In this document: piece by piece, positions 11,935 through 44,465 of the stretch
Position numbering within the stretch: the stretch's first letter is position 1
Layout of the letters: each line of letters opens with the position of its first letter
NCBI RefSeq assembly: GCF_056746865.1
Contig: NZ_CM163382.1
Direction: 5' to 3' (one strand)
Length of the DNA stretch: 64,000 bases
Translations under genes and position numbers: made by a program
The notes under the pieces: generated by a model
Database searches by the model: none
Told to the model about the DNA's origin: nothing
The model's input: only the letters and a program-made list of their open reading frames with translations

Positions 11935-12948
11935 TTACGCGGCCGGTAACTCTGCCAGCGGCCAGCGCGGACGCACGCTAACGCCAAGATCCGCCGTCGC
12001 GCCTGCTTTAAACCGCACCATTCCGGCATAGGCGATCATCGCGCCGTTATCAGTACAAAATTCCGGACGCGCGTAGAACACTTCGCCACGGCGTTTTTTC
12101 ATCATTTCAGCCAGCTTCGCCCGTAACGTGCGGTTAGCACTCACGCCACCTGCCATTACCAGTCGCTTAAAGCCCGTCTGATCCAGCGCTCGCTTACACT
12201 TAATCATCAACGTATCGACCACCGCATCTTCAAAGGCGCGGGCGATATCAGCACGCGTCTGGTCGTCGGTGCCGTTATCACGAATGGTATTTGCCGCGAA
12301 GGTTTTCAGACCAGAAAAGCTGAAATCCAGCCCCGGACGGTCGGTCATCGGGCGCGGGAAGACAAAGCGCCCGGCAGTACCCTGAGCCGCCATTTTCGAC
12401 AGTAATGGCCCGCCAGGATAATCCAGCCCCAGCAGCTTCGCGGTTTTGTCAAACGCTTCCCCGGCGGCATCATCAATAGACTCGCCGAGCAGCTCATACT
12501 GACCAATGCCAGTGACGCTGATTAACTGCGTATGACCGCCGGAAACCAGTAGCGCCACAAACGGAAATTCCGGTGGGTTATCTTCCAGCATCGGCGCTAA
12601 CAGATGCCCTTCCATATGGTGTACCGGGATCGCCGGAACGTCCCAGGCAAACGCCAGAGAACGCCCCACGGTCGCGCCAACCAGCAGCGCGCCGACTAAT
12701 CCAGGGCCTGCGGTATAGGCCACAGCATCAATGTCTTTTGCCGTTAAACCAGACTCCTTTAGCGCCGCCTGGATCAACGGTACGGTTTTACGCACGTGAT
12801 CGCGGGAGGCCAGTTCAGGCACGACGCCGCCGTAGTCAGCGTGCAATTTCACCTGACTATACAATTGGTTGGCTAACAAACCTTTTTCATCGTCGTAAAT
12901 GGCGATGCCGGTTTCATCGCAGGAAGTTTCAATACCCAGTACACGCAT
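11935..12948 (-). CDS. tsaD: tRNA N6-threonylcarbamoyladenosine synthase TsaD
   Basis: 337 aa [20 protein letters not shown]...; divergent from rpsU. Confidence 0.92.
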
Positions 12949-18002: not shown

Positions 18003-18078
18003 GGCCCCTTAGCTCAGTGGTTAGAGCAGGCGACTCATAATCGCTTGGTCGTTGGTTCAAACCCAACAGGGGCCACCA
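18003..18078 (+). tRNA. ileX: tRNA-Ile (anticodon CAU, ileX-like)
   Basis: 76 nt: 7-bp acceptor stem GGCCCCT/AGGGGCC, D-arm, anticodon loop CTCATAA, T-arm GTTGG-TTCAAAC-CCAAC, 3' CCA. Ile2 rather than Met assignment is from memory of ileX and from position after mug. Confidence 0.85.
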
Positions 18079-18089
18079 TACACAACAAA

Positions 18090-18126
18090 GGGTTAGCTAA
18101 TAAACCAGCTAACCCTTTTTCTTTTT
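18090..18126 (+). terminator. Intrinsic terminator after the tRNA
   Basis: Stem gggttagct / agctaaccc with 8-nt loop, followed by tttttcttttt. Confidence 0.6.
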
Positions 18127-18176: not shown

Positions 18177-19022
18177 TCAGATGGCTGATAATTGTCCCGG
18201 ATAACGCTTTGCAATGATGTCATTTAGCCGATCAACCAGTTCTGGTTTTCTGAATGTGATATGCGCGGAGCCCTTCTTAAAGTATCTGATGCTGAACATC
18301 TCATCTTCATAGCTCTCTTTACCCTGAACAGACTGAATGTGCTCATCCAGACGAATAGTGATGTTTTCCCGATTGTCGGGGATTGGTTTACCGCTGAACA
18401 GGTGCAACATTCTTTCCAGATCGGCGAGTCGGTCAGCCTGTTGTCCGGTGATAAGATGAAATCCCCACCGGTCCCATCTCACCAGATTGTTGACGATAAT
18501 TTTACTGCCAAATTTACAGGGGCAATTGGTTTTGTAATTCCAGTTCAGCCCTCTGAAGACGTTGATCACCCCTCGCTCAAACACCTCATCCTTATTCTGG
18601 TGCAGTTGTTCAAATGTGCTCAGGATGTTCGCTTCGCTGATTTCCGGAAAATTATCGTACTCCAGTGACCGGTACCATGTCTCACGGGCCTGTGCATCCA
18701 TTAAGGAAAGCATCCCGGAACGTTGCATCAAGTCACGCCAGATTTCACGATCGAGATTGTGTGTGATGGCTTTCATTGCCGTTTCAGGTTTCTCCATGAG
18801 CCAGCAGCCACAGCGAAAATCCTGTTTCATCGCCCAGTCCAGTGCGGTTTTACCGCCAATACTTTCTGTCATTGCTGAGATTTCAGCCAGTTGCCGGATA
18901 AGTGTGTTGATTTGCAGCAGTGTACTTTTTCGTACAGCCAGAATGTGGCGGATACTGGTTGAGCAGATAACGTCCGTATGCCCGTTGACTACTTCCGGAC
19001 GGGAGGCTGTGATATCAGACAT
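18177..19022 (-). CDS. Conserved hypothetical protein of CP4-type islands (possibly DUF4942 family)
   Basis: 281 aa ORF at the distal end of the cbtA module; family assignment from memory only. Confidence 0.5.
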   Translation of the reverse strand: MSDITASRPEVVNGHTDVICSTSIRHILAVRKSTLLQINTLIRQLAEISAMTESIGGKTALDWAMKQDFRCGCWLMEKPETAMKAITHNLDREIWRDLMQRSGMLSLMDAQARETWYRSLEYDNFPEISEANILSTFEQLHQNKDEVFERGVINVFRGLNWNYKTNCPCKFGSKIIVNNLVRWDRWGFHLITGQQADRLADLERMLHLFSGKPIPDNRENITIRLDEHIQSVQGKESYEDEMFSIRYFKKGSAHITFRKPELVDRLNDIIAKRYPGQLSAI

Positions 19023-21494: not shown

Positions 21495-21508
21495 TGTTCC
21501 GGCCCCTT

Positions 21509-21994
21509 TCAGTCAATGATGCGCATAATGGCGTTGCATTCCGGATGCTGCAGGGCGTAATCCCGCAGCCGGTAATAATGGACCGTCATGGCATAACACT
21601 CCGTACGACAGGCATGATGGCTGTACGTCATCAGACAGGCAGCAATGCCGGCGGCTTCCGGGCTCATTTCAGCGCGGTTACCGTTCATGGCACTGAACAG
21701 TACCCATGTTTCGTCATCATCGTCATCCGGTTCGGGTGCCATAAATGCCCCGCCGTTGTTCAGGGTGTACAGATTCCAGATACCACCACAGTAGTCTTCG
21801 CACAGACGATCCATCCAGCCGAAGACACGGGGCTCCAGGGTCACCCACTGTGGAATGAGGCCAAAATGCTGCGGCCAGAAGCTGATGCGCTGTTCATCAG
21901 GGACGAGGGTGGCAACCAGTTGAGGCGGGTTATTCTCTGATACAGCGGTTACGGAAACAGAAGGTGTGGTGGAATTATGCAAAACGGTTGTCAT
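21509..21994 (-). CDS. Antirestriction protein (ArdB/KlcA-like, YfjX-type)
   Basis: 161 aa with acidic stretch (EPDDDDDE); position and size typical of antirestriction proteins in CP4-type islands; assignment from memory. Confidence 0.6.
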   Translation of the reverse strand: MTTVLHNSTTPSVSVTAVSENNPPQLVATLVPDEQRISFWPQHFGLIPQWVTLEPRVFGWMDRLCEDYCGGIWNLYTLNNGGAFMAPEPDDDDDETWVLFSAMNGNRAEMSPEAAGIAACLMTYSHHACRTECYAMTVHYYRLRDYALQHPECNAIMRIID

Positions 21995-22084
21995 GAGATT
22001 ATTCCTTATAAAAAGTAAATGAATGGAAGAAGTCGCGGGGCAGGGACGGACATGAGTCAGAACTGCGCTTTCAGGGAAAAGGCA

Positions 22085-22903
22085 TCAGCGCATACTCTTC
22101 AGCAGTGTTTCTGCCATCACCCACAATGCGCGATTGAGCTTAATGTCGGTGTCGATGCTGTGAATGGCACGGGTATGGATACGTTTTCCTCTGGCACTGC
22201 GACCGGAAATCCCGCCTTTCAGCATATTCTCCTGGATGGTCTGATAAGCACTCCACAGGTCCTTACCGTAATCCTCCCGGCGTCGCGGTGTCAGAATGTC
22301 AGCAGCGGTGACGGGCTGATGTTCGTCACCATAACGGTAAGTCAGTGCCGCCTGTGCCAGCGCCTGGCGTGCCGGTGGCGGCAGGACCAGCGACTGCATG
22401 GCATCACGCTTCTCCTCAATCCGGTCAAAAACCCCCACCACCTCGTAAGCCCCTTCGATAACTTTCTCCACTACGTCTCCCCGGTGTGGAACACGCACTT
22501 CCCCCAGAGACTGACCACAGACGCATCCGTTCTGGCAGACGAACCTGAAGTAACCCGGCAGCATCTGGTAGCTGGAGGTACCGTCATGGGAGTTCAGCAG
22601 GATGATTTCAGGGACATGTTGTCCGTTTATCTCCCCGTCACGGCGCAGACGCAGCATGTGTTTGGTGTATCCCCGGCGGCCCGGGTCGCGCACGCGGGTC
22701 TGGCAGGCGAAGAATGGCTGGAAGCCTTCCCGCTGCAGGCTTTCCAGCACGGTGATGGTGGGGATCCAGGTATAGTTCTCGCTTCTGGATGTGTGTTTCT
22801 CTTCCCCGAATACGCTGGGGACGACCTGCATCAGTTCTTCACGGGTTAAGGGGCGGTCACGGCGTATCTGGTTCGCATAACCAAAACGACTGGCTAATCG
22901 CAT
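22085..22903 (-). CDS. DUF932-family protein (YafZ/YfjQ-like)
   Basis: 272 aa; conserved partner gene of CP4-type islands. Confidence 0.55.
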   Translation of the reverse strand: MRLASRFGYANQIRRDRPLTREELMQVVPSVFGEEKHTSRSENYTWIPTITVLESLQREGFQPFFACQTRVRDPGRRGYTKHMLRLRRDGEINGQHVPEIILLNSHDGTSSYQMLPGYFRFVCQNGCVCGQSLGEVRVPHRGDVVEKVIEGAYEVVGVFDRIEEKRDAMQSLVLPPPARQALAQAALTYRYGDEHQPVTAADILTPRRREDYGKDLWSAYQTIQENMLKGGISGRSARGKRIHTRAIHSIDTDIKLNRALWVMAETLLKSMR

Positions 22904-23175
22904 GATTTATTCCTTATGAATGAGTTAGCGGTGTAAATGAAAAAGCCGCGTCTCCCGGAGAAGACGCGGCCTGATGGACGAAATGAATGACGTTTATTGT
23001 CTGAGAAGCCCTTCACTGGCGAGCTGCGTATTTTTATGGAAGGAGATCACCCAATAACCCCATCGGGATCGGGCAATAACCGGCCAAATTGTGAACGATT
23101 CAGATGCCATTTGGCAGCAAAAGAGCCTTCGGCAATAAACGTGATGTACAACCCGGCATATCTGTTGCTCCCTGA

Positions 23176-23207
23176 AAGTAAAAAGCCCCGGTCATTATGA
23201 CCGGGGC
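23176..23207 (-). terminator. Intrinsic terminator after flu (agn43)
   Basis: Minus-strand hairpin gccccggtca/tgaccggggc (loop taa) followed by U-run (plus-strand aaaaa at 23180-23184), 20 nt after the flu stop. Confidence 0.5.
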
Positions 23208-23229
23208 CTGAAGGGGAGTGACCTGATTA

Positions 23230-26076
23230 TCAGAAAGTCACATTCAGCGTGGCCTGACCGTTATAGCCTTCAGCGCTGTTGCCGCTGACACTGTGGGCAT
23301 AACCGGCCTGAACGCCCAGAGTGATATTTTCCCGGACACGGGCTTCCAGTCCGGCCTGCAGGTCCAGTGACGTGCCATTCTGTGACGGTGAGAACGTCAT
23401 GTTACTGCCGGCTTCAGCTGTACCCATGCTCATGTCACCCCGGGAGCTGAAAGTGCGGATAACAGAAGGCTGTACCCACCAGTTCACCGGCAGTTCACTC
23501 ACACGGTGTTTTGTACTGTCGCGCAGAGTGTCACGGGATGAGGTGCCTTCGCCAAAGGTCATATCGTTGTGGCTGCCCAGACGGAAGCCGGCACGCACAT
23601 GTTGTGTACTGCCATGCCCGAACTTCACATAACCGGCGTTATCCTGGCCGTCATCCAGGGAGAGCCCCTGCCAGGTGTACTGCAGTTGTGGCTCCAGCAT
23701 CAGGTTGTCAGTGATACTGAAGGGCAGACCGGTTTCCAGTGAGCCCAGCCAGCCCCAGCCCCGGGCGCGGAAGTCGTTATTGTCCGATGACGCTTTCATG
23801 CTGTGGCGGGTTCCCTGTGCCACAATGTCAGCCCACAGGCCGGAGGACGTGTGTGTCAGATTCAGGTATCCGCCCAGGCTGCCGGCATCATCCCGGACTG
23901 TGCCGGCGCGGGAACCGTCATCATCCTTAACATCAACGGAAGAATGACCTGCAGCACCATACACCCCTGTCGTCAGAGACATACCTGCAACCTCTGTTCT
24001 CAGCAGGTCACCCTCCAGACGGACGAAGCCATAGCTGCCGCTGCTTTCCGGCGTGGCTCCACGGGCAATACCGCCGTTGTTATCGTGACCGAGATGACCG
24101 CCCTGAATGCTGAGACGGACGCTGTTATTTTCACCGTTTACACCGGTCTGATGGCTGCGGGAGCCTGCCAGAATCCGGTCATAGTCCATTGCCTGTGTCA
24201 GCATGGAGGCATACAGGGGGACTTCAGCACGATAAGCATTTTCACTGCGCAGGTACCAGTCTTCATCGCTGTCACGGTTCAGGGTGTAGTTAAAGGCACC
24301 GGCCTGAAGCGGGCGACTCAGGGCAAACGCACCTTCTTCTGTGGTGGCACCATTCTGTGCATCCACAACCCGGATACCCTGTCCGGAGGTTGCCACCCCG
24401 AGGTTACTGTTTCCGACATTTGTGAACGCAAGCCAGGTTTTGCCGGTTGCCTGACCACCATTAATCACCAGCTGGTCAGAGGCATTGCTGCCATCAAGGC
24501 GAACACGCATATTGATGGTGCCACCCTGACCGGTGAGGTTACTGGTTGTCAGTTTATGGAACGTTACCGGGGCGTTGCCTTTTGCAACAGCACGGCTCAG
24601 TATGGCATCCGGTGTTGTCTGATTGTCAAAGTAAATCTCCCCTGCGTTAACAATATCGCCGGTACTGACCACATCACCATTCAGTACCATGCTGGCGCCT
24701 TTACTGAGCTGTGTTCTGCCACTCAGACTTCCCCCGGCAGCCAGCATCAGTGTTCCACGATGTCCGACAGTGGTGTTGCCAGCCTGTCCCCCGGCATTAA
24801 CCGTAAAGCTGCCGCCATTTTCCAGCAGCAGGCCGCTGGCCTGACCGGATATGCCATCAATACTGAACTTACCGCTGGCATTGGTCCCCTCAACAGTGGC
24901 ACCACTGTCTGCAATCAGGGCACCACCGGATGTCATGGTGACACCTGTCGCCTTACCACCGGCAGACACTGCCAGGGTTCCGCCGTCATCCACCCGTGTT
25001 TTCTGCGCTGAATGGCCCTCCAGTACATCCAGGCGACCGCCGGACTCCAGAACAACACCGTCAGCCTTACCGTTTTCCACCGTGAAATTCCCCAGACGGT
25101 TGCTGCCGGTGACGGTTGCCGCCGTACTGGTGACCAGTGCGCCGCCCTGCTTCAGGGTGACATTCGTGGCTGTACCACCGGCGTTCACCTGCAGTTTGCC
25201 TTTCTGGTTAACGGTGGAGAAATCCGCCAGACCACCTTCCTTGATAATCTGCCAGCCGTCACTGTTTACAACAGTGCCAGACGCCGTACCGCCGTTGTGC
25301 ACATACTGGTACCCCCCATTCAGCGTGGTATCCAGTGCGTGACCATGTACAGTCTGGTCGCCGCCGGCATAAACCACAGTGGTATTTGCCGTTCCTTCAG
25401 CAGCCACAATCTGACGACCATTTTTATTGATGGTGGTGCGTACGGCATCTCCGTAGACGGTCTGCCCGGTATCACCATTTTCTGCATCCGGTCCCCCTTC
25501 CGCGCCGGTATTCACAACCGTGTCGGTTGCCATTGCGCCGGATTTGACGGCCTGCCAGCCCTTCTCATTAATGACGGTACCCGTTGCAATCCCGCCTTCA
25601 TGTATCCACTGCTCACCGCCGTTCAGAGTGGTGTTCACTGCCTGCCCCTGAAGGCTCTGTCCGCCTCCGGCACTGATAACCGTGTCTGAAACGCTTCCTC
25701 CGGCATTCACTCTCTGAAGACCACCACCGGTGACAGTAGTGTTGTTGGCGGTACCGCCATTTTGTATCCATTGGCCGCCGGTATTCGCCTCGTTATCCGG
25801 CCCATACTCCAGCCCGGTACTGATGGTCATTCCGTTGGCCGTACCGAAGACAATCTGGTTGTCATGATTTGTCAGTGTTCCGCCGCTCACGGTTTCTCCC
25901 GCCTGTACGACCGTGTCAGCAGCCAGTACCGGGACTGACGTGACAGCAGCAAGAGACAGCGCAACCGCCACACCGGTGCGTTTTCCCCGTGAGCGCGCCA
26001 GTTCGGAAGCCACCACCAGGGTGCCCGTAATGTGATTCCATACCAGCCTGTAGCTGGTGTTCAGATGTCGTTTCAT
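23230..26076 (-). CDS. flu: Antigen 43 self-associating autotransporter adhesin
   Basis: 948 aa from Met MKRHLNTSYRLVWNH... (26th codon of the track ORF); long signal peptide, repetitive passenger domain, C-terminal beta-barrel ending NVTF. Confidence 0.88.
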   Translation of the reverse strand: MKRHLNTSYRLVWNHITGTLVVASELARSRGKRTGVAVALSLAAVTSVPVLAADTVVQAGETVSGGTLTNHDNQIVFGTANGMTISTGLEYGPDNEANTGGQWIQNGGTANNTTVTGGGLQRVNAGGSVSDTVISAGGGQSLQGQAVNTTLNGGEQWIHEGGIATGTVINEKGWQAVKSGAMATDTVVNTGAEGGPDAENGDTGQTVYGDAVRTTINKNGRQIVAAEGTANTTVVYAGGDQTVHGHALDTTLNGGYQYVHNGGTASGTVVNSDGWQIIKEGGLADFSTVNQKGKLQVNAGGTATNVTLKQGGALVTSTAATVTGSNRLGNFTVENGKADGVVLESGGRLDVLEGHSAQKTRVDDGGTLAVSAGGKATGVTMTSGGALIADSGATVEGTNASGKFSIDGISGQASGLLLENGGSFTVNAGGQAGNTTVGHRGTLMLAAGGSLSGRTQLSKGASMVLNGDVVSTGDIVNAGEIYFDNQTTPDAILSRAVAKGNAPVTFHKLTTSNLTGQGGTINMRVRLDGSNASDQLVINGGQATGKTWLAFTNVGNSNLGVATSGQGIRVVDAQNGATTEEGAFALSRPLQAGAFNYTLNRDSDEDWYLRSENAYRAEVPLYASMLTQAMDYDRILAGSRSHQTGVNGENNSVRLSIQGGHLGHDNNGGIARGATPESSGSYGFVRLEGDLLRTEVAGMSLTTGVYGAAGHSSVDVKDDDGSRAGTVRDDAGSLGGYLNLTHTSSGLWADIVAQGTRHSMKASSDNNDFRARGWGWLGSLETGLPFSITDNLMLEPQLQYTWQGLSLDDGQDNAGYVKFGHGSTQHVRAGFRLGSHNDMTFGEGTSSRDTLRDSTKHRVSELPVNWWVQPSVIRTFSSRGDMSMGTAEAGSNMTFSPSQNGTSLDLQAGLEARVRENITLGVQAGYAHSVSGNSAEGYNGQATLNVTF

Positions 26077-30464: not shown

Positions 30465-33400
30465 ATGACTCATCAAACACACACCATTGCTGAATCCAAT
30501 AACTTTATCGTCCTTGATAAGTACATCAAAGCTGAGCAAACAAGCGACAGCTACCAGAGCGAATCGGACCTGGAACGTGAACTGATTCAGGACCTGCGGA
30601 ATCAGGGTTATGAATTTATTTCCGTAAAATCACAGTCGGCAATGCTGTCTAATGTTCGGGAACAGCTTCAGAGCCTCAATGGTGTGATGTTTAATGACAG
30701 CGAGTGGCGGCGCTTCACGGAGCAGTATCTGGACAACCCCAGCGATGGTATTCTGGATAAAACCCGTAAAATCCATATCGACTATATCTGCGACTTTATT
30801 TTTGACGACGGGCGACTTGAGAACATCTATTTGATAGATAAAAAGAATCTCATGCGCAATAAGGTGCAGATTATCCAGCAGTTTGAACAGACGGGTTCTC
30901 ATGCTAACCGTTATGACGTCACGATCCTGGTTAATGGTTTACCGCTGGTGCAAATCGAACTAAAAAAACGCGGGGTGGCGATTCGTGAGGCTTTCAACCA
31001 GATACATCGTTACAGTAAAGAGAGTTTTAACAGCGAAAATTCCCTGTTTAAGTATCTGCAACTGTTTGTCATTTCTAACGGCACCGATACCCGTTATTTT
31101 GCCAACACGACAAAGCGCGATAAAAACAGTTTTGACTTCACCATGAATTGGGCGAAATCAGACAACACGCTGATTAAAGACCTCAAAGACTTTACCGCTA
31201 CCTTTTTCCAGAAACATACTCTGCTGAATGTTCTGGTGAACTACAGCGTTTTTGACAGTAGTCAGACGCTACTGGTGATGCGACCGTACCAGATTGCCGC
31301 CACCGAGCGCATTCTGTGGAAAATTAAGAGTTCCTTTACAGCGAAGAACTGGTCAAAACCGGAAAGCGGTGGGTATATCTGGCACACTACCGGTTCTGGT
31401 AAAACCCTCACCAGCTTTAAAGCCGCGCGTCTGGCAACAGAGCTGGACTTTATTGATAAAGTCTTCTTTGTGGTCGACAGGAAAGACCTCGATTACCAGA
31501 CCATGAAGGAATATCAGCGTTTTTCGCCAGACAGCGTCAACGGCTCGGAAAATACCGCAGGCCTTAAACGAAATCTGGATAAGGACGATAACAAAATTAT
31601 CGTCACTACTATTCAGAAACTCAATAACCTGATGAAAGCAGAAAGCGACCTGCCTGTATATAATCAGCAAGTGGTGTTTATATTTGATGAATGCCACCGC
31701 AGCCAGTTTGGAGAAGCGCAGAAAAACCTGAAGAAGAAATTCAAACGCTATTATCAGTTTGGTTTTACCGGCACCCCTATTTTCCCGGAAAACGCCTTAG
31801 GCTCAGAAACAACCGCCAGCGTATTTGGCCGTGAATTGCATTCGTATGTGATTACCGATGCGATTCGTGACGAAAAAGTGCTCAAATTCAAGGTGGACTA
31901 CAACGATGTGCGGCCACAGTTTAAGTCTTTAGAGACAGAAACTGACGAGAAAAAACTGAGTGCGGCTGAAAATCAGCAGGCGTTTCTTCACCCCATGCGT
32001 ATTCAGGAAATCACGCAATATATCCTGAATAATTTCCGCCAGAAAACCCACCGTACTTTCCCTGGTTCCAAAGGTTTTAATGCCATGCTGGCAGTAAGCA
32101 GCGTGGATGCTGCAAAAGCCTATTATGCGACGTTTAAACGGTTACAAGAGGAAGCCGCTAATAAATCTGTAACTTATAAACCGCTGCGTGTTGCGACAAT
32201 CTTCTCCTTTGCCGCTAATGAAGAACAAAATGCCATTGGTGAAATTTCCGATGAAACTTTTGATACCAGCGCAATGGACAGCAGTGCTAAAGAGTTTCTT
32301 GACGCTGCAATTCGTGAGTATAACAGCTATTTTAAAACTAACTTCAGCACCGACGGTAACGGTTTTCAGAACTACTATCGTGATTTAGCCCAACGGGTTA
32401 AAAATCAGGATATCGATCTGTTAATTGTCGTGGGAATGTTTTTAACCGGCTTCGATGCTCCAACATTAAACACGCTATTCGTCGATAAAAACTTGCGTTT
32501 TCACGGCCTGATGCAGGCATTCTCCCGCACCAACCGCATTTATGACGCGACTAAAACCTTCGGTAATATTGTCACGTTCCGGGATCTGGAACGCTCAACC
32601 ATTGATGCCATAACGCTGTTTGGTGATAAAAATACCAAAAATGTGGTTTTAGAAAAGAGTTATGCAGAGTATATGGAAGGCTTTACTGATGCTGCCACTG
32701 GTGAAGCTAAACGCGGCTTCATGACAGTAGTTTCAGAACTGGAACAACGGTTCCCTGACCCTACCAGTATTGAAAGTGAAAAAGAGAAGAAAGACTTCGT
32801 TAAACTGTTTGGCGAATACCTGCGTGCCGAGAATATCCTGCAAAACTATGATGAATTTGCCACGCTAAAAGCCCTGCAACAAATCGATCTTAGCGATCCT
32901 GTTGCGGTAGAAAAATTCAAAGCAGAACATTATGTGGATGATGAAAAGTTCGCTGAATTGCAAACAATTCGTCTCCCTGCTGATCGCAAGATTCAGGATT
33001 ATCGTTCTGCCTATAACGATATTCGCGACTGGCAGCGCCGTGAGAAAGAAGCTGAGAAAAAAGAGAAATCAACCACTGACTGGGATGACGTAGTTTTTGA
33101 GGTCGATTTGCTGAAGTCTCAGGAAATAAACCTGGATTATATCCTTGGACTGATTTTCGAACACAACAGACAAAATAAAGGCAAGGGCGAAATGATCGAA
33201 GAGGTCAAACGCTTAATTCGTTCAAGCCTGGGGAACCGTGCTAAAGAGGGCCTGGTGGTCGATTTTATTCAGCAAACGAACCTGGATGATTTACCGGACA
33301 AAGCCAGCATCATTGACGCATTCTTTACGTTTGCTCAACGCGAACAGCAACGTGAAGCAGAAGCCTTGATCAAAGAAGAAAATCTCAATGAAGAGGCGGC

Positions 33401-33581
33401 GAAACGCTATATTCGCACATCTTTAAAACGCGAATACGCCACCGAAAATGGCACGGAATTAAACGAGACACTGCCCAGACTCAGTCCTTTAAATCCGCAA
33501 TATAAAACGAAAAAACAGACTGTTTTTCAAAAAATTAGCGCATTTATTGAAAAATTTAAGGGGGTGGGTGGAAAGATTTAG
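30465..33581 (+). CDS. hsdR: Type I R-M restriction endonuclease/helicase subunit
   Basis: 1038 aa; helicase motif I (TGSGKT) and DEAD-like box ([12 protein letters not shown]); length and sequence recall EcoR124I HsdR. Confidence 0.92.
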
Positions 33582-33731
33582 GGAAGGTGCGAATAAGCAG
33601 GTCATTTCTTCCCAAGCTGACTCGCTGATTAAAATTTCGCGGATCTGGGCCGATTTTTTTCCCGCAAACACATCGAATCGGCCTGTTTAGGCTATTTTTT
33701 CCACCATTTCTGGCGTTATTTCCGGTTTTTA

Positions 33732-36015
<2,284 letters not shown>

Positions 36016-36184
36016 TCAGGAACTTGTTCGCACCTTCCCTAAAAAAAGCAGATGATTTTCATTATTATCGCAGGATAATTGTGCGCATATTTTCCATGCG
36101 GATAAGAATACTTATTCATGGAAATAATAATTTCCAGGTCATCAAGTGAAATCTGTTAACGCAAAGAGTGTTCCACCCTGCCCC

Positions 36185-36715
36185 TCACACCATCTCAAGT
36201 TTTACCGCGTCATAACCACACTGAACCAAACATTCACCGCAACCATTACATATTGCAGCATCGATTACAGGCATTCCGCTTTCGTTGATTGAGCATGCCT
36301 GAAGTGGGCATAGATCGACACACTGTTTGCAACTGCGCACCGGATTAACACAATTTGCTTTAAAAACGGGACGCAATCCGGTGTCGAAACGAGCCTGCGG
36401 ACGTAATGCCTCAGTGGAACATGCAGCTATACATAAGCCGCAGCCGTCACAACTGGCAAATTCAATCACCAATTGCGGATAGCCATCTTCATGCCGGTTG
36501 AGAATGCCCATGGGACAGGCATTAATACACAAATCACACTGCGTGCACTGCACACGAAACTGCGCATCAGGTAACGCGCCGGGAGGTAAGGAGTGCACAG
36601 GTAATATCGGTGTTGTTACCGGGCGTGCCGCGCTGACAAAGGCCCGAAATAGCCCACGTCGGCTAACATACCGATGAGACATTAACTCCTGATAATAATT
36701 TTCTGACTTACTCAT
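36185..36715 (-). CDS. Ferredoxin-type protein with multiple 4Fe-4S motifs (NapF-like)
   Basis: Several CxxCxxCxxxCP motifs; start taken at MSKSENYYQ... whose ATG overlaps the upstream chaperone stop (ATGA). Confidence 0.65.
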   Translation of the reverse strand: MSKSENYYQELMSHRYVSRRGLFRAFVSAARPVTTPILPVHSLPPGALPDAQFRVQCTQCDLCINACPMGILNRHEDGYPQLVIEFASCDGCGLCIAACSTEALRPQARFDTGLRPVFKANCVNPVRSCKQCVDLCPLQACSINESGMPVIDAAICNGCGECLVQCGYDAVKLEMV

Positions 36716-37308
36716 CCAAGAAAGAGCCGTTTGGTTGGAGGATTTAGTGCCTGTTGCTGCTGATAATCCTGCAGAAACAGTGTCGCAATCTGCGCCAACT
36801 TCGCGTAAAACGCACTGACAGGGTTGCGCTGTAATAACTCCAGATAACGATATCCCCACGGCAGCAAATGCGTTTCCAGCAATTGATTCGCTGCGCGTTC
36901 TTTCCCCTCTGCCAGCAAGGCGCTACAGGCAAGCAGCATCAGGCCAAACTGATCTTCCGGTTCATTTATACAGGAATCAAACGTCATTCCCTGATCACGA
37001 AGGAACTTCCGGTACTCGGCAGTGCTGTCCCCCATCAACAGATTATCTTTTTCGAGATATACCGAACCCCAGGGTGGTGCTGGCATTTCACCCTGTCCTT
37101 CAAAAAGAACAGAAAATTGCCAGAGATGCTGCTCCTCATCCGGGATTGACCAGTCAGAGCATAATTCAGCCACCTGGCGGGGATCGCGCCAGGGGTATAT
37201 CTCATCCAATGTCGGCAGACAGTCAAACAGTGCCCGAACTTCAGGACGCGTGGGAGAATAGTAAAACAGGGCACCAAGAATACGCACCAGTACGGCTGGG
37301 GAAGGCAT
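36712..37308 (-). CDS. TorD/DmsD-family redox enzyme maturation chaperone
   Basis: About 199 aa from MPSPAVLVRILGALFYY...; position after the membrane anchor as in dms/ynf operons. Confidence 0.6.
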   Translation of the reverse strand: MPSPAVLVRILGALFYYSPTRPEVRALFDCLPTLDEIYPWRDPRQVAELCSDWSIPDEEQHLWQFSVLFEGQGEMPAPPWGSVYLEKDNLLMGDSTAEYRKFLRDQGMTFDSCINEPEDQFGLMLLACSALLAEGKERAANQLLETHLLPWGYRYLELLQRNPVSAFYAKLAQIATLFLQDYQQQQALNPPTKRLFLG

Positions 37309-37362
37309 GATTAAACACTCCTGAAAGCAGAGGTGGCCGGGCAAACACCGGCCACTCACAGG

Positions 37363-38139
37363 TTACATAGGGATGGTCCAGAGGTTGTAGAAACCGATCC
37401 GACCAACCAGTTCAGCAGCAATAACCACCAGTGCAGTCATCGCCAGCACAGCTTGCCCACTTTTCATGCGTGCATAGAGCAGTGCCCCAATAACACCCAG
37501 CGCCAACAGAATGGCCTGAGCGGTAAACCAGGTGGACTGCGCAGCGGTAATAACGCCATCAGCACTCATTAGCGTGGAAATATAACCCGGACGCAAACAG
37601 AAACTCGCCAGAATCGCCAGTACACTTACCAGCAGCCCCAGACGACGAACGCCAAACAACGCCGCCAACATGCCGCCACCGATAAGTGCAGTTAGCACCA
37701 TCATCATGGTGGTGTAAGAGGTACTCCAGGTCGCTACCGTTGCCAACTGGTAAATACGCGGGATGGCAAAGATAAACACGACTCCAATCGCAGCGGCCAG
37801 CCATACCAGTACTTTACAAAGCATTGCACCACCGCGATTTAACAGCAAACCGAGAGATCCCAGTCCTCCGGCTGCGGCAAAACATGCCGAAAGCACGATT
37901 TCGTTACTCATAGGAGAACTGCCGACACGGAATAGCATATTCAGCGCTCGCAGCGGCTGCCCGACATGAATGGTGCCAAGCACAACACCCACACCAAACA
38001 AGCACATCACCGAAAAGAGACCAATCGCCATACGACGTGGCTCAATTAATCCCATGGCACCGCCAATCAGCAGCAGAATAAACGCCCCCACTGCGCTCTG
38101 GGTAAATACGGTGAAAAAGACCAGTGGTAACTCATGCAT
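37363..38139 (-). CDS. DmsC-like membrane anchor subunit
   Basis: 258 aa, eight predicted hydrophobic segments; overlaps the B-subunit stop by 8 nt. Confidence 0.75.
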   Translation of the reverse strand: MHELPLVFFTVFTQSAVGAFILLLIGGAMGLIEPRRMAIGLFSVMCLFGVGVVLGTIHVGQPLRALNMLFRVGSSPMSNEIVLSACFAAAGGLGSLGLLLNRGGAMLCKVLVWLAAAIGVVFIFAIPRIYQLATVATWSTSYTTMMMVLTALIGGGMLAALFGVRRLGLLVSVLAILASFCLRPGYISTLMSADGVITAAQSTWFTAQAILLALGVIGALLYARMKSGQAVLAMTALVVIAAELVGRIGFYNLWTIPM

Positions 38140-38758
38140 GGCGCACCTCCCGAATGTTCATGATCGCCCCTTCTTTGTCGCCCGTAGGTCGCGCCAGCGG
38201 ATGCGGTTTAATTATCAGGTTAGGATGCGTAAACGAAGCGGCAGGTAACGGTGCGATTTCATTTTCACTGCCATATTTCGCCCGCAATTCGTCGATAGGA
38301 CCAAAATCCAAAGCTCGCTGTGGACAGGACTCAACACAAATAGGCGGGAGATTTTTCTCCAGTCGGTCAAGGCAACCATCACACTTACGCATCACTTTAG
38401 CTTGTGTATCAAACTGCGGTGCACCATAAGGGCAGCGCATTTCGCAGTAACGACAGCCCACACAAACACTGTCATCCACCAGCACCAGGCCATCTTCTTC
38501 GCGTTTGTGCATCGCGCCGGTTGGGCAACCTGCCACACAGGTCGGTTCATCGCAGTGATTGCAGGCAATCGACAAATAGTAAGTGAAGGTATTGTTGTGC
38601 CAGCTTTCACCTTCTTTCACCCAGCTACCGCCACCATATTCATACACGCGGCGCAGCTTCGGTCCGACATCCAAATCTTTATTATCCTTGCAGCTTACCT
38701 GGCAGGTTTTGCAGCCAGAGCAACGCGAGGAGTCAACGTAAAAACCATACTGTTTCAT
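38132..38758 (-). CDS. DmsB-like 4Fe-4S electron-transfer subunit
   Basis: 208 aa with four Cys-cluster motifs (CSGCKTCQVSC, CNHCDEPTCVAGCP, CVGCRYCEMRCP, CDGC...C). Confidence 0.85.
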   Translation of the reverse strand: MKQYGFYVDSSRCSGCKTCQVSCKDNKDLDVGPKLRRVYEYGGGSWVKEGESWHNNTFTYYLSIACNHCDEPTCVAGCPTGAMHKREEDGLVLVDDSVCVGCRYCEMRCPYGAPQFDTQAKVMRKCDGCLDRLEKNLPPICVESCPQRALDFGPIDELRAKYGSENEIAPLPAASFTHPNLIIKPHPLARPTGDKEGAIMNIREVRHA

Positions 38759-38771
38759 TGCGGATCACTCC

Positions 38772-41207
38772 CTAAGCGCGTTTGATTTCAACCAGGTTGG
38801 TATGTTGCGGGTTCCCTTTCGCCAGCGGCGACGGCAGGTGGCTGGTCAATGTGTTAATACATCCACCCACGTCCACACCGTTGCTGTCCAGTCGGGTCCA
38901 CGCGCCTTGCGGCATTGCCACCACGCCCGGCAGGATGCGCTGTGTCACCTTGCAGGGGATCTCCACCACACCGCGATCGTTGAATACATGGACCATATCG
39001 CCTGATTTCAACTGACGCACGCTGGCGTCTATCGGGTTGATCCAGACTTCATCCGGTACCGCTTCATGCAGCATCAGCACACTGGCATATGTTGAGTGCG
39101 TGTGACCTTTGGTGTGAAAACCGCTCATCTGTAGCGGATACTTTGCTGTCAGACTCTTGTTCAGATGGGACTCTGTCACTATACAAAATTCAGGAACAGC
39201 CGGAATGCGATCTCCTTCCGGTAGTGTCCAGGCTTTAGCCAGTTCCGCCAGAGTGTGCGAGTAAATCTCAATCTTCCCGGAAGGTGTCGTCAGTGGACTG
39301 GCAACCGGATCATGGCGGAAATCAGCAAGGATAATACTGTCCTCATCACGAGTACCTTGCTGATCGATAACCCCCATATTCATTGCAACTTCCCATTCAG
39401 GCAGATATGATCGCTTCTCTTTAACTTGTCCGTAATGCTTCGCCATCCACTCTGCCTGAGTACGCCCCTCAGTAAAACGCTCTCTTACCCCAAGATGCCC
39501 CGCAATATCTGCACAGATATCATAGGTACTGCGTACTTCCCACATCGGTGTGATCGTTTTTTGCATTGCAATCATGTAATGGTGAGAACCGGCTGCATAG
39601 GAACTGTCCACCAGATCCTCGGCTTCTAAGTAGCTAGTTTCTGGAAGAAGGATATCGGCAAAGCGGGCACTGGCAGTCATATGATTATCAATAACCACGA
39701 TAGTTTCGCACAGGCTGTCATCTTCAAGTATTTTGCGTGTACGATTGATATTTCCATGTTGATTCAGAAGTGCATTCCCGGCCTGGTTGAAGAACAGTTT
39801 AATACCGGTTTTCAGTTTATCCGCGCCTTTAACCCCCATAGTGGTGGCTGTCATTTTTTCCGGACTTTGAATCGCATCTGTCCACAGATAGCAGGGGATT
39901 GACACCTTAACGGGATTTTCACCAATCGGCAGAGCAGGAACACCATAAGGTGTTCCGTATGTCCAGTTCCCATTGTTGGTTCCTGGCAATCCAAAATGAC
40001 CCGTCAGGGCAGGAAGTATCTGAACCGCTCTGGAAGTCTGTTCACCATTTGCATGACGCTGTGGCCCCCATCCCTGGGCAATGAAACAGGCCCGAGCTTC
40101 GGCCATTTCACGTGCCAACTGGCGAATACGAATAGCCGGGATGCCACAGATATCTGCCGCCCATTCAGGTGTTTTTTCGACGCCGTCATCACCGTTACCC
40201 AGAACATAGTCTTTATAACTGGCATTTGGTTTCGCCGTTTCCGGAAGGGTGCTACGATCATAACCGACACAATAAGTATTGACTCGTTCTTCGTCGATCA
40301 GATTTTCTTTTATCAACGTGTGTGCAATAGCTGCTACCAGTGCAGCATCGGTTGTAGGGCGAATTGGTAACCATTCAGCATGTTCTGTAACAACAGAGTC
40401 TGTATAGCGCGGATCGATGATAATCACCCGGGCGCCTGATATTTCCAGCGCACGGCGCAGTTCTTCAACTTGCCCACCACCGGACATCCGAGTCTCAGAT
40501 AAATTCAGACCAAAAAAAACCACAAGATCAGAATGCGCAATCTGGCTAAAATGACTGGCAAACTGTACTCCTGTAGCACCATACGTGTAAGATGTGGCGG
40601 TAAAGTTTTGAGCGTTTGAGTAATTATTGTAATACTGCAGAAAACCGCCATTCAGGTTCAATAACCTTTTCCATGCGGGTGTTCCTTGGTTATGATAATA
40701 CGCGCCAGATTGATAATTAAAATAGATTGCTTCATTTCCATATTTTTCAGAAACGCGCTTTAATTCAGCGGCAATAAAGGCTGTGGCCTCATCCCATGAA
40801 ATACGTTTAAATTTCCCTTCTCCGCGTTTACCAACACGTTTCATCGGATATTTAATCCGGTCAGGGCTATAAACACGCCAGCGGCTGGAACGACCACGTA
40901 GGCAAGGTCGAATCTGATGTTCACCAAAAACAGAGTCGTCCTTCGCGTCCTCGGCTTCAATACGAACAATGCGTCCGTCTTTTACGATAACTTTTAATGG
41001 ACAACGACTTCCGCAATTCACCAGGCAAGCACTATGCCTGACGGTTTCAGCATTTTCGTTGGTTTTACCGGTATCCGATGTTTCGGCCCTGACGGTTGTG
41101 GAAAAAGGCAAAGTGATGGCGTTGCTTAGTGCAACGGCAGCTCCCAATTTTGCAGTTGTAGTCACCGCATCACGTCGGGAGATTGTTGTATTTAACAACT
41201 CTTTCAT
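38772..41207 (-). CDS. DMSO reductase-family molybdopterin oxidoreductase catalytic subunit (DmsA/YnfE-like)
   Basis: 811 aa; twin-arginine signal (TISRRDAVTT), N-terminal Cys cluster (HSACLVNCGSRCP), molybdopterin domains. Confidence 0.85.
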   Translation of the reverse strand: MKELLNTTISRRDAVTTTAKLGAAVALSNAITLPFSTTVRAETSDTGKTNENAETVRHSACLVNCGSRCPLKVIVKDGRIVRIEAEDAKDDSVFGEHQIRPCLRGRSSRWRVYSPDRIKYPMKRVGKRGEGKFKRISWDEATAFIAAELKRVSEKYGNEAIYFNYQSGAYYHNQGTPAWKRLLNLNGGFLQYYNNYSNAQNFTATSYTYGATGVQFASHFSQIAHSDLVVFFGLNLSETRMSGGGQVEELRRALEISGARVIIIDPRYTDSVVTEHAEWLPIRPTTDAALVAAIAHTLIKENLIDEERVNTYCVGYDRSTLPETAKPNASYKDYVLGNGDDGVEKTPEWAADICGIPAIRIRQLAREMAEARACFIAQGWGPQRHANGEQTSRAVQILPALTGHFGLPGTNNGNWTYGTPYGVPALPIGENPVKVSIPCYLWTDAIQSPEKMTATTMGVKGADKLKTGIKLFFNQAGNALLNQHGNINRTRKILEDDSLCETIVVIDNHMTASARFADILLPETSYLEAEDLVDSSYAAGSHHYMIAMQKTITPMWEVRSTYDICADIAGHLGVRERFTEGRTQAEWMAKHYGQVKEKRSYLPEWEVAMNMGVIDQQGTRDEDSIILADFRHDPVASPLTTPSGKIEIYSHTLAELAKAWTLPEGDRIPAVPEFCIVTESHLNKSLTAKYPLQMSGFHTKGHTHSTYASVLMLHEAVPDEVWINPIDASVRQLKSGDMVHVFNDRGVVEIPCKVTQRILPGVVAMPQGAWTRLDSNGVDVGGCINTLTSHLPSPLAKGNPQHTNLVEIKRA

Positions 41208-41301: not shown

Positions 41302-41413
41302 GTGAGATTTGGTGCTTAGCACAAATATAAATATTTGTGATCATTATCAAAATGTAAATGATAACGCATCTTTATTATCATTTGAGATTAAATATCACGC
41401 AGCGTTAATCTAA

Positions 41414-43870
<2,457 letters not shown>

Positions 43871-44465
43871 CAAGAGAACGCAACAGCGCACTTGCTTTGC
43901 CACAGTTGAATTTTGTGCCGTAACGATGTGCAAGCATGTAAGCATAAGGAGTCAAGGTATAGCGTGTTACTTAGTTACTCGGATTAACAATCCCAACGTA
44001 CAGAGCGGCGGATTTAGAGAGTCAGCGCAGTCCCTGCTCCGGCAGTCAGTGGCAGGCGGCGTACTGAAGCAAACCATTATCGATACCGGCATCGGCGATA
44101 CCATCGGCATGCTGATGTCACACGGCAATATTTCTCCCTACATCATGGCGTGGTTGATAACCGTGCTGATCCGTCTGGCAACGGGTCAGGGCGTGGTCTC
44201 AGCCATGACGGCGGCGGGGATTATTAGCGCAGCAATCCTCGACCCGGCAACCGGTCAACTGGTGGGCGTCGACCCGGCGTTGCTGGTGCTGGCAACAGCG
44301 GCTGGCTCCAACACGCTGACCCATATCAACGATGCTTCGTTCTGGCTGTTCAAAGGCTACTTTGATCTGTCGGTGAAGGATACGCTGAAAACCTGGGGTC
44401 TGCTGGAGCTGGTAAACTCCGTGGTTGGCCTGATAATCGTGTTGATCATCAGCATGATTGCATAA
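43871..44465 (+). pseudogene. GntP-family permease, C-terminal fragment truncated by IS5
   Basis: The 303-aa track ORF starts inside IS5; only the distal ~198 codons look like a gluconate-type permease C-terminus. Confidence 0.6.

Follow-up and report, generated by a model that had tools for sequence, protein, structure and literature searches.

Partial terminators lying inside operons are a familiar element, as in the case of the one before dnaG in rpsU-dnaG-rpoD, which stands between genes of the same strand, where limited read-through lowers the expression of the distal genes, and which has been measured experimentally. Closer to the locus treated here is IsrC, the leader RNA of flu, an RNA that has been detected, in a defined leader whose promoter is mapped: in the passage of PMC5389530 that cites Wallecha 2014, flu expression is described as being controlled by antitermination of IsrC, and read-through as being required for the expression of the downstream gene. 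At the other end of flu (agn43), in the UPEC strains EC958 and CFT073, agn43, yeeR and irmA are transcribed together, under repression by OxyR, from a start 228 nt upstream of agn43, and RT-PCR in UPEC found irmA not to be co-transcribed with the genes downstream of it (PMC4807369); in EAEC 042, irmA has its own promoter (PMC9431211).

The window analyzed here, that is, the whole stretch of 64,000 nucleotides from contig NZ_CM163382.1 (assembly GCF_056746865.1), carries a flu gene within an island read on the minus strand. A GTPase gene (27321-26449) is followed by the IsrC leader (26331-26095; Rfam RF00124 'IS102', 74 bits, E 3e-11), by flu itself (26076-23230, with its stop TGA at 23232-23230), an Ag43-family autotransporter gene with the Pfam domains AIDA, Autotransporter, AC_1 and ESPR, and then by a DUF932 gene (22903-22085), assigned from Pfam and from the annotation of an identical locus (L002). 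After DUF932 the run continues on the same strand with genes recognized by Pfam as antirestriction, RadC/JAB, DUF987, CbeA, CbtA, DUF5983, DUF957 and DUF4942, and at its end lies a tRNA(CAU) (18003-18078), annotated as tRNA-Ile in the identical E. coli genome, beside which a two-directional hairpin (18087-18118) closes the island. The locus is 100% identical to that of E. coli CFSAN061769, in which flu is annotated Ag43/Cah, and when 5,426 complete E. coli genomes were searched with a query of 431 nt, parts of that query were found in 4,373 of them, at 12,381 places altogether.

Between flu and DUF932 there are two minus-strand stem-loops, called here T1 and T2. T1 (23209-23183) begins 20 nt after the flu stop and consists of 12 bp, 8 of them G-C, closed by the loop AUA; its sequence is AGGCCCCGGUCAUAAUGACCGGGGCUU and its tail UUUACUUU, the U-run directly 3' of the stem being UUUUUACUUU, which extends to 23175. 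T2 (22972-22943) has 13 bp, again with 8 G-C pairs, and the loop UCCG, a C(UNCG)G tetraloop; its sequence is AGGCCGCGUCUUCUCCGGGAGACGCGGCUU, its tail UUUCAUUUAC, and its U-run (UUUUUCAUUU) extends to 22935. From the end of the T2 stem to the ATG of DUF932 (22903) there are 39 nt, occupied by a T-rich spacer with the SD TAAGGAA at 22916-22910 (spacer 22942-22904). In both tails six of the first eight nucleotides are U and the U-run is broken after 5 U; the plus-strand versions of the two hairpins lack a T-run, that is, both are one-directional. Folded alone, T1 reaches -22.6 kcal/mol (z -5.5) and T2 -24.5 kcal/mol (z -6.7), and in neither case was any of 200 dinucleotide shuffles as low.

A sequence-only reading of this DNA had placed minus-strand hairpins at 23185-23207 and 22944-22969, each followed by a U-run and the second about 40 nt upstream of the DUF932 start; both are indeed present, those coordinates falling inside the stems given above, with the U-runs and the distance as just described. 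The terminator prediction that it had proposed as a check, run here as a generic scan of 3 kb, returned 3 sites against 2.4 expected from shuffled sequence, T1 and T2 being by far the strongest of them. Second copies of either stem are absent from the 64 kb window, with up to 3 mismatches allowed, and repeated extragenic palindromes of the REP type were ruled out, as each stem is single-copy in the 64 kb. An Rfam search of the region 19-28 kb at a permissive threshold gave no match for T1 or T2, and its sole result was IsrC/IS102 upstream of flu.

The terminator of that leader offers the nearest comparison. It is a hairpin with a perfect 12-bp stem (26135-26108, minus strand) ending 31 nt before the flu ATG (26076), and in the K-12 annotation isrC ends at that hairpin, 27 nt before flu. 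It shares with T1 and T2 the island, the strand, a GC-rich stem followed by a U-run and, in general, the energy and the composition of the tail: in the comparison of the terminators the values of dG were -22.1 for T1, -22.1 for T2 and -22.3 for IsrC, with 6, 6 and 7 U, respectively, in the first 8 nucleotides of the tail, while the efficiency score that accompanied these values is an estimate and is indicative only. Unlike the IsrC hairpin, which belongs to a leader, T1 and T2 lie behind sequence that codes, or once coded, for protein and show no sequence similarity to it, and in contrast to this detected RNA and to the measured terminator of rpsU-dnaG-rpoD they are predicted from sequence. 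They share with the latter their place between genes of the same strand.

T1 and T2 combine, then, the properties of intrinsic terminators, namely a GC-rich stem, a short loop, a U-run, stability, and a pairing that is kept through change, and the label 'terminator-like' that had been given to them has good support in their sequence and energetics, in their conservation and in the comparison with IsrC. The reading that we consider likely is that they are two one-directional Rho-independent terminators placed in series on the sense strand, T1 ending the flu (Ag43) transcript and T2 being the local representative of a hairpin that generally precedes DUF932, which would insulate the run from DUF932 to CbtA. 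The features of the sequence, the stability, the conservation, the compensatory changes and the pseudogene described below are shown directly; that the hairpins terminate transcription in the cell, how efficiently they do so, and where the transcription of DUF932 comes from, we infer from the DNA. The elements themselves are of an ordinary kind and bring no new kind of mechanism; what the analysis adds is the DUF905 pseudogene between them, an origin of T1 that is probably chimeric, and the conservation of position of the hairpin before DUF932 genes.

With regard to T1, the flu genes of K-12 and Nissle 1917 are also followed by a hairpin, about 21 nt after the stop (GGUCCCGGUCAUCAUGACCGGGACC in K-12, GGUCCCGAUCAUCAUGAUCGGGACC in Nissle 1917, with a compensatory G-C to A-U change between them), and the core of the T1 stem (CCGGUCAU.AUGACCGG) is common to both. 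In these two strains the hairpin is followed by CGGACCGG, there is no U-run on either strand, and the next gene is yeeR, to which irmA is added in Nissle. A different hairpin with a U-run (AGCCUCUGUCAC...GUGGCAGAGGCU) lies after irmA in Nissle and in L042, and the junction irmA-hairpin-DUF905 is present in 2,139 of the 5,426 E. coli genomes. Like T1, this irmA-DUF905 hairpin stands about 23 nt ahead of the DUF905 start codon, and the 5' flank (CUUCAG.CC), the U-run, the SD and the region of the DUF905 start are homologous, whereas the stem (AGCCTCTGTCAC...) is unrelated. The window differs from the irmA-bearing strains in that yeeR-irmA is absent and the T1 stem core is that of the hairpin at the 3' end of flu. 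T1 looks chimeric, therefore, with a stem core of the flu type set inside flanks of the irmA-terminator type, and this is consistent with a loss of yeeR-irmA, which would have put a U-run behind the flu hairpin and so created T1.

The RT-PCR result cited above fits a non-terminating hairpin after flu together with a terminator after irmA, the hairpins being those of Nissle 1917 and the RT-PCR that of EC958. If T1 acts as supposed, the prediction is that in this type of island the antirestriction and CbtA/CbeA genes further downstream would not be expressed from the phase-variable, OxyR-controlled flu promoter, in contrast to strains with flu-yeeR-irmA as one operon.

The K-12 hairpin also leads to another way of understanding these structures. 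In K-12 (L040) a Term-seq 3' end antisense to flu (Adams 2021) is located at 2074672, minus strand (position 4173 of L040), some 10 nt beyond the hairpin at the 3' end of flu, which suggests that an antisense RNA contains this hairpin and has its end protected by it. Such an end is typical of hairpin protection, and the hairpin of K-12 and Nissle has been conserved, with its compensatory G-C to A-U change, although it lacks a U-run; T1 and T2 could then be mainly post-transcriptional elements, either barriers to 3' exonucleases or processing boundaries on which the stability of the individual cistrons of a long island transcript depends. A pure stability element would have no need of a U-run, however, and here the U-runs directly follow both stems, and the T-rich tails are kept in nearly all the variants found upstream of DUF932, so that we regard a mainly post-transcriptional role as very unlikely.

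The DNA between the two hairpins is not devoid of history. The sequence-only reading was right in placing the hairpins between flu and the DUF932 gene, but its description of the interval was incomplete, as the spacer holds a decayed DUF905 (PF06006) gene (23159-22994, minus strand), which was recognized by DNA alignment, three-frame translation and tblastn, the references for the alignment being a frameshifted copy (L001) and an intact one (L003, 77 aa, whose protein matches PF06006 with E 1e-31). The remnant measures 166 nt against 234 nt in the intact gene. It keeps the SD (CAGGGAG, 23174-23168, minus strand), the ATG at 23159 and the first ~10 codons, after which come a frameshift, by deletion of 1 nt, and larger internal deletions; the first stop in its frame appears after 19 codons. 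The last 12 codons of DUF905 (...QLASEGLLRQ*) are retained, up to the stop TAA at 22996-22994, and three-frame translation places them in a frame other than that of MPGCTSRLLP...; a tblastn search with these C-terminal 12 aa gave E 2e-4. T1 lies 23 nt before the former start, and 21 nt separate the stop from T2, in such a way that the two hairpins bracket the former gene. On this sequence evidence the spacer is a DUF905 pseudogene, hitherto unannotated, and the annotation of the 'intergenic' region between flu and DUF932 is corrected to a DUF905 pseudogene between two putative terminators. The annotation of many genomes includes a DUF905 gene between Ag43 and DUF932, and a locus search anchored on DUF905 in viral contigs found a single truncated locus. 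Two ORFs that overlap the region, 22997-23200 on the plus strand and 22894-23016 on the minus strand, have no Pfam match and were taken as spurious.

Where this arrangement occurs in divergent copies, identity is 69-93% for the DUF905 remnant, against 93-96% for the T1 stem and 93-100% for the T2 stem; in other words, as judged from these alignments, the remnant evolves faster than either stem-loop. This bears on the idea that the interval could be a small RNA, a re-use of the DUF905 remnant that ends at T2, for which one could invoke the strong terminator T2 some 210 nt downstream of T1 and a weak promoter-like match, CTGCCA-18-CACAAT, at 23117-23088. A sequence that changes faster than its flanks and whose homology to a coding gene is clear is not what such an RNA would lead one to expect, the spacer between T1 and T2 has no Rfam match, its interior shows no excess of RNA structure (z -0.76), and the promoter matches reach just 8/12, at roughly chance frequency, all of which makes a small RNA highly improbable.

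T2, for its part, is not peculiar to this locus, nor is it merely the terminator of DUF905. Among 34 loci taken from IMG/VR, picked solely by homology of their DUF932 protein (45-94% identity), 32 had enough upstream DNA, and in 28 of these a hairpin (a single stem with dG <= -16.7) with a T-rich tail ends 25-49 nt before the ATG, the other four being a deletion variant and the three most divergent homologues. A raw threshold of folding energy was discarded as a positional test, being too unspecific (24% of the control windows reach -16 kcal/mol), and strict criteria were used instead: a stem of 9 or more contiguous bp, 5 or more G-C pairs and a T-rich tail, a combination that is found about once per 4.9 kb in related DNA. 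With these criteria, a site falls in a slot of 36 nt in 19 of the 32 loci, against 0.013 expected per locus from the density of sites elsewhere in the same loci (one per 4.9 kb). The genes upstream are at least 8 unrelated ones, which include Ag43 with the DUF905 remnant, GTPases, and ORFs of 312, 181, 142, 114, 112, 104 and 70 aa. By sequence comparison, then, the hairpin is conserved in position before DUF932 in many contexts. An apparent occurrence of T2 before genes other than DUF932, from matches covering only positions 1-67 of the query, was rejected, as it corresponds to a variant with a spacer 10 nt longer in which DUF932 is still downstream; and a GTPase-DUF932 locus without the hairpin (L012, 1445-1495), where the GTPase stop lies 49 nt before the DUF932 ATG, represents a natural deletion variant.

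At this position there are about 17 distinct stem sequences with compensatory changes, in a wider set whose stems were recognized by their ability to pair, and the T-rich tails persist despite this turnover of the stem. The spacers of 20 non-redundant DUF932 loci have only the T-run and the SD in common. Tetraloops of the C(UNCG)G form (UCCG, UUCG) recur among the divergent variants, which indicates a function at the level of RNA. In an alignment built on the flanks (A2), homology between unrelated contexts sets in precisely at the hairpin base ('AUC AGGCC...'), and 92% of the cells pair, compared with ~50% when the partners are slid; double compensatory changes occur in 4 of 13 pairs, and the covariation score was reached by 3 of 500 shuffles. 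These counts come from an alignment that was not fitted to the structure (MAFFT could not register the isolated stems and was left unused), and the covariation of T2, which rests on six sequences, is supportive rather than conclusive. In sum, T2 stays 25-49 nt before the DUF932 start whatever the upstream gene, its stem sequence turning over while the pairing is kept.

The coincidence of the hairpins with the breakpoints of homology between island variants could also be taken to mean that they are features of the DNA of a mobile island, either sites of recombination at the junctions of modules or signals in single-stranded DNA. The U-runs are strand-specific, though, the UNCG tetraloops are of an RNA type, the hairpins are sited before ribosome-binding sites, and there is neither a repeated consensus nor any feature resembling attC or oriT; a DNA-level role is, as we see it, extremely improbable.

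Outside these loci, the K-12 junctions yfjP-yfjQ (CP4-57) and ykfA-yafZ (CP4-6) resemble that of T2, with a GC hairpin and a T-rich run that ends ~36-42 nt before the DUF932 start; they differ from it in having a GTPase gene instead of DUF905 upstream, in their stems (GAGCCCTGTCGC.. and CCCCTGTCGC..), and in the weak U-run of the yafZ copy. In the supplements of the K-12 studies by Term-seq (Adams 2021) and SMRT-Cappable-seq (Yan 2018) there is no entry for yfjQ, yafZ, ykfF or sense-strand flu, an absence probably due to the very low expression of these island genes under laboratory conditions; the position-conserved hairpin offers a simple, testable handle on the low expression of genes that are widespread in islands and poorly understood.

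If T1 and T2 are terminators in series, T2 would likely insulate the run DUF932-antirestriction-RadC-...-CbeA/CbtA from transcription that arrives from upstream, in this island that of the phase-variable flu promoter. Against this stand the break of both U-runs after 5 U and the fact that a terminator placed directly before a gene without a visible promoter leaves the expression of DUF932 unexplained. A consensus scan of both strands from 21500 to 24500, which atypical promoters can escape, found no sigma-70-like site; a relaxed scan from the 3' end of flu to the DUF932 start gave three matches of 8/12, against ~1 expected, and neither scan found a promoter-like site in the interval from T2 to the DUF932 ATG. 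The transcription of DUF932 would therefore pass through T2 or start at a promoter that escapes detection. The suggestion of the sequence-only reading that the downstream genes may depend on read-through or on an internal promoter was reasonable, with the qualification that the stretch between T2 and the DUF932 start holds no promoter-like site; the run would be served by polymerases that read through two strong terminators, or by a more distant promoter of the kind just mentioned.

A layout of hairpin, U-run, SD and ATG precedes four genes in the window, at distances of 31 nt (flu), 23 nt (the DUF905 remnant), 39 nt (DUF932) and 30 nt (DUF4942), with tails that are similar across the four sites (UUUUCAUUUA). 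The last of these is a strong terminator-like hairpin at 19079-19053 on the minus strand, with the tail UUUUCAUUUAU, before the ATG at 19022. No hairpin was found in the window at the junctions DUF932-antirestriction, RadC-DUF987, DUF987-CbeA and CbeA-CbtA. The DUF932-antirestriction spacer (21995-22084, minus strand) contains a stretch, 'UUCAUUUACUUUUUAUAAGGAAUAA', similar to the tail and SD found after T2, and as a sequence-based suggestion a hairpin may have been lost from it; in K-12 a hairpin is present before the antirestriction gene at ykfF-yafX and ypjI-lfgA.

It is this layout that gives rise to the main rival of the two-terminator reading, according to which T2, together with the corresponding hairpins ahead of flu, DUF905 and DUF4942, would be regulated leader attenuators, transcription starting upstream and some factor or condition switching on the read-through, as has been reported for IsrC. 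The arrangement is that of IsrC and flu, with a distance from terminator to ATG of 31 nt there and 39 nt at T2; flu is under antitermination control in the part of the literature already cited (PMC5389530); the T2 hairpin travels with DUF932 and not with the upstream gene; and no promoter-like site follows it. An attenuator would nevertheless be expected to carry more than the hairpin. The upstream DNA is unrelated from one context to another, so that there is no conserved sequence able to form an antiterminator, the spacer has neither excess structure (the same z of -0.76) nor an Rfam cis-regulatory match, the search upstream of T2 gave no dedicated promoter, only the weak 8/12 matches at about chance frequency in a scan that atypical promoters can escape, and no candidate for an antitermination factor was identified. 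On balance we regard regulated attenuation at T2 as unlikely, and prefer to see in T1 and T2 two plain terminators.

A bolder extension is that the unit of hairpin, U-run, SD and ATG, which in K-12 is found before ykfF, yafX, yafZ and yfjQ, could be a deliberate building block of CP4-type islands, in such a way that each cassette would carry its own upstream terminator, its genes would be silent in any context of insertion until a dedicated antitermination signal opened the whole series, and the hairpins would also serve as joints for the exchange of cassettes. This would mean, if true, that antirestriction and toxin-antitoxin genes are kept silent wherever the island inserts; we offer it as a speculation that is quite unlikely to hold.

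Elsewhere in the window there is a direct repeat of 2,464 bp with 99.6% identity (33576-36039 and 41408-43871), each copy of which contains an ORF for a DDE_Tnp_1 transposase, an ORF for an rve-type transposase, and a match to Rfam RF01387 ('isrC Hfq binding RNA'), a family named 'isrC' that is a different RNA from the IsrC leader of flu (RF00124), the names being easily confused. The copies bracket a DMSO-reductase-like operon (36712-41207), in a composite-transposon-like arrangement, the left one adjoining the end of a type I hsdR (30465-33581) and the right one a GntP permease fragment (43554-44465). Further along, an ALIL pseudoknot, the frameshift signal of the IS3 family (54639-54755, minus strand, 112 bits), and the catalytic domain of a group II intron (52026-52112, minus strand, 65 bits) point to further mobile elements in the upper part of the window.
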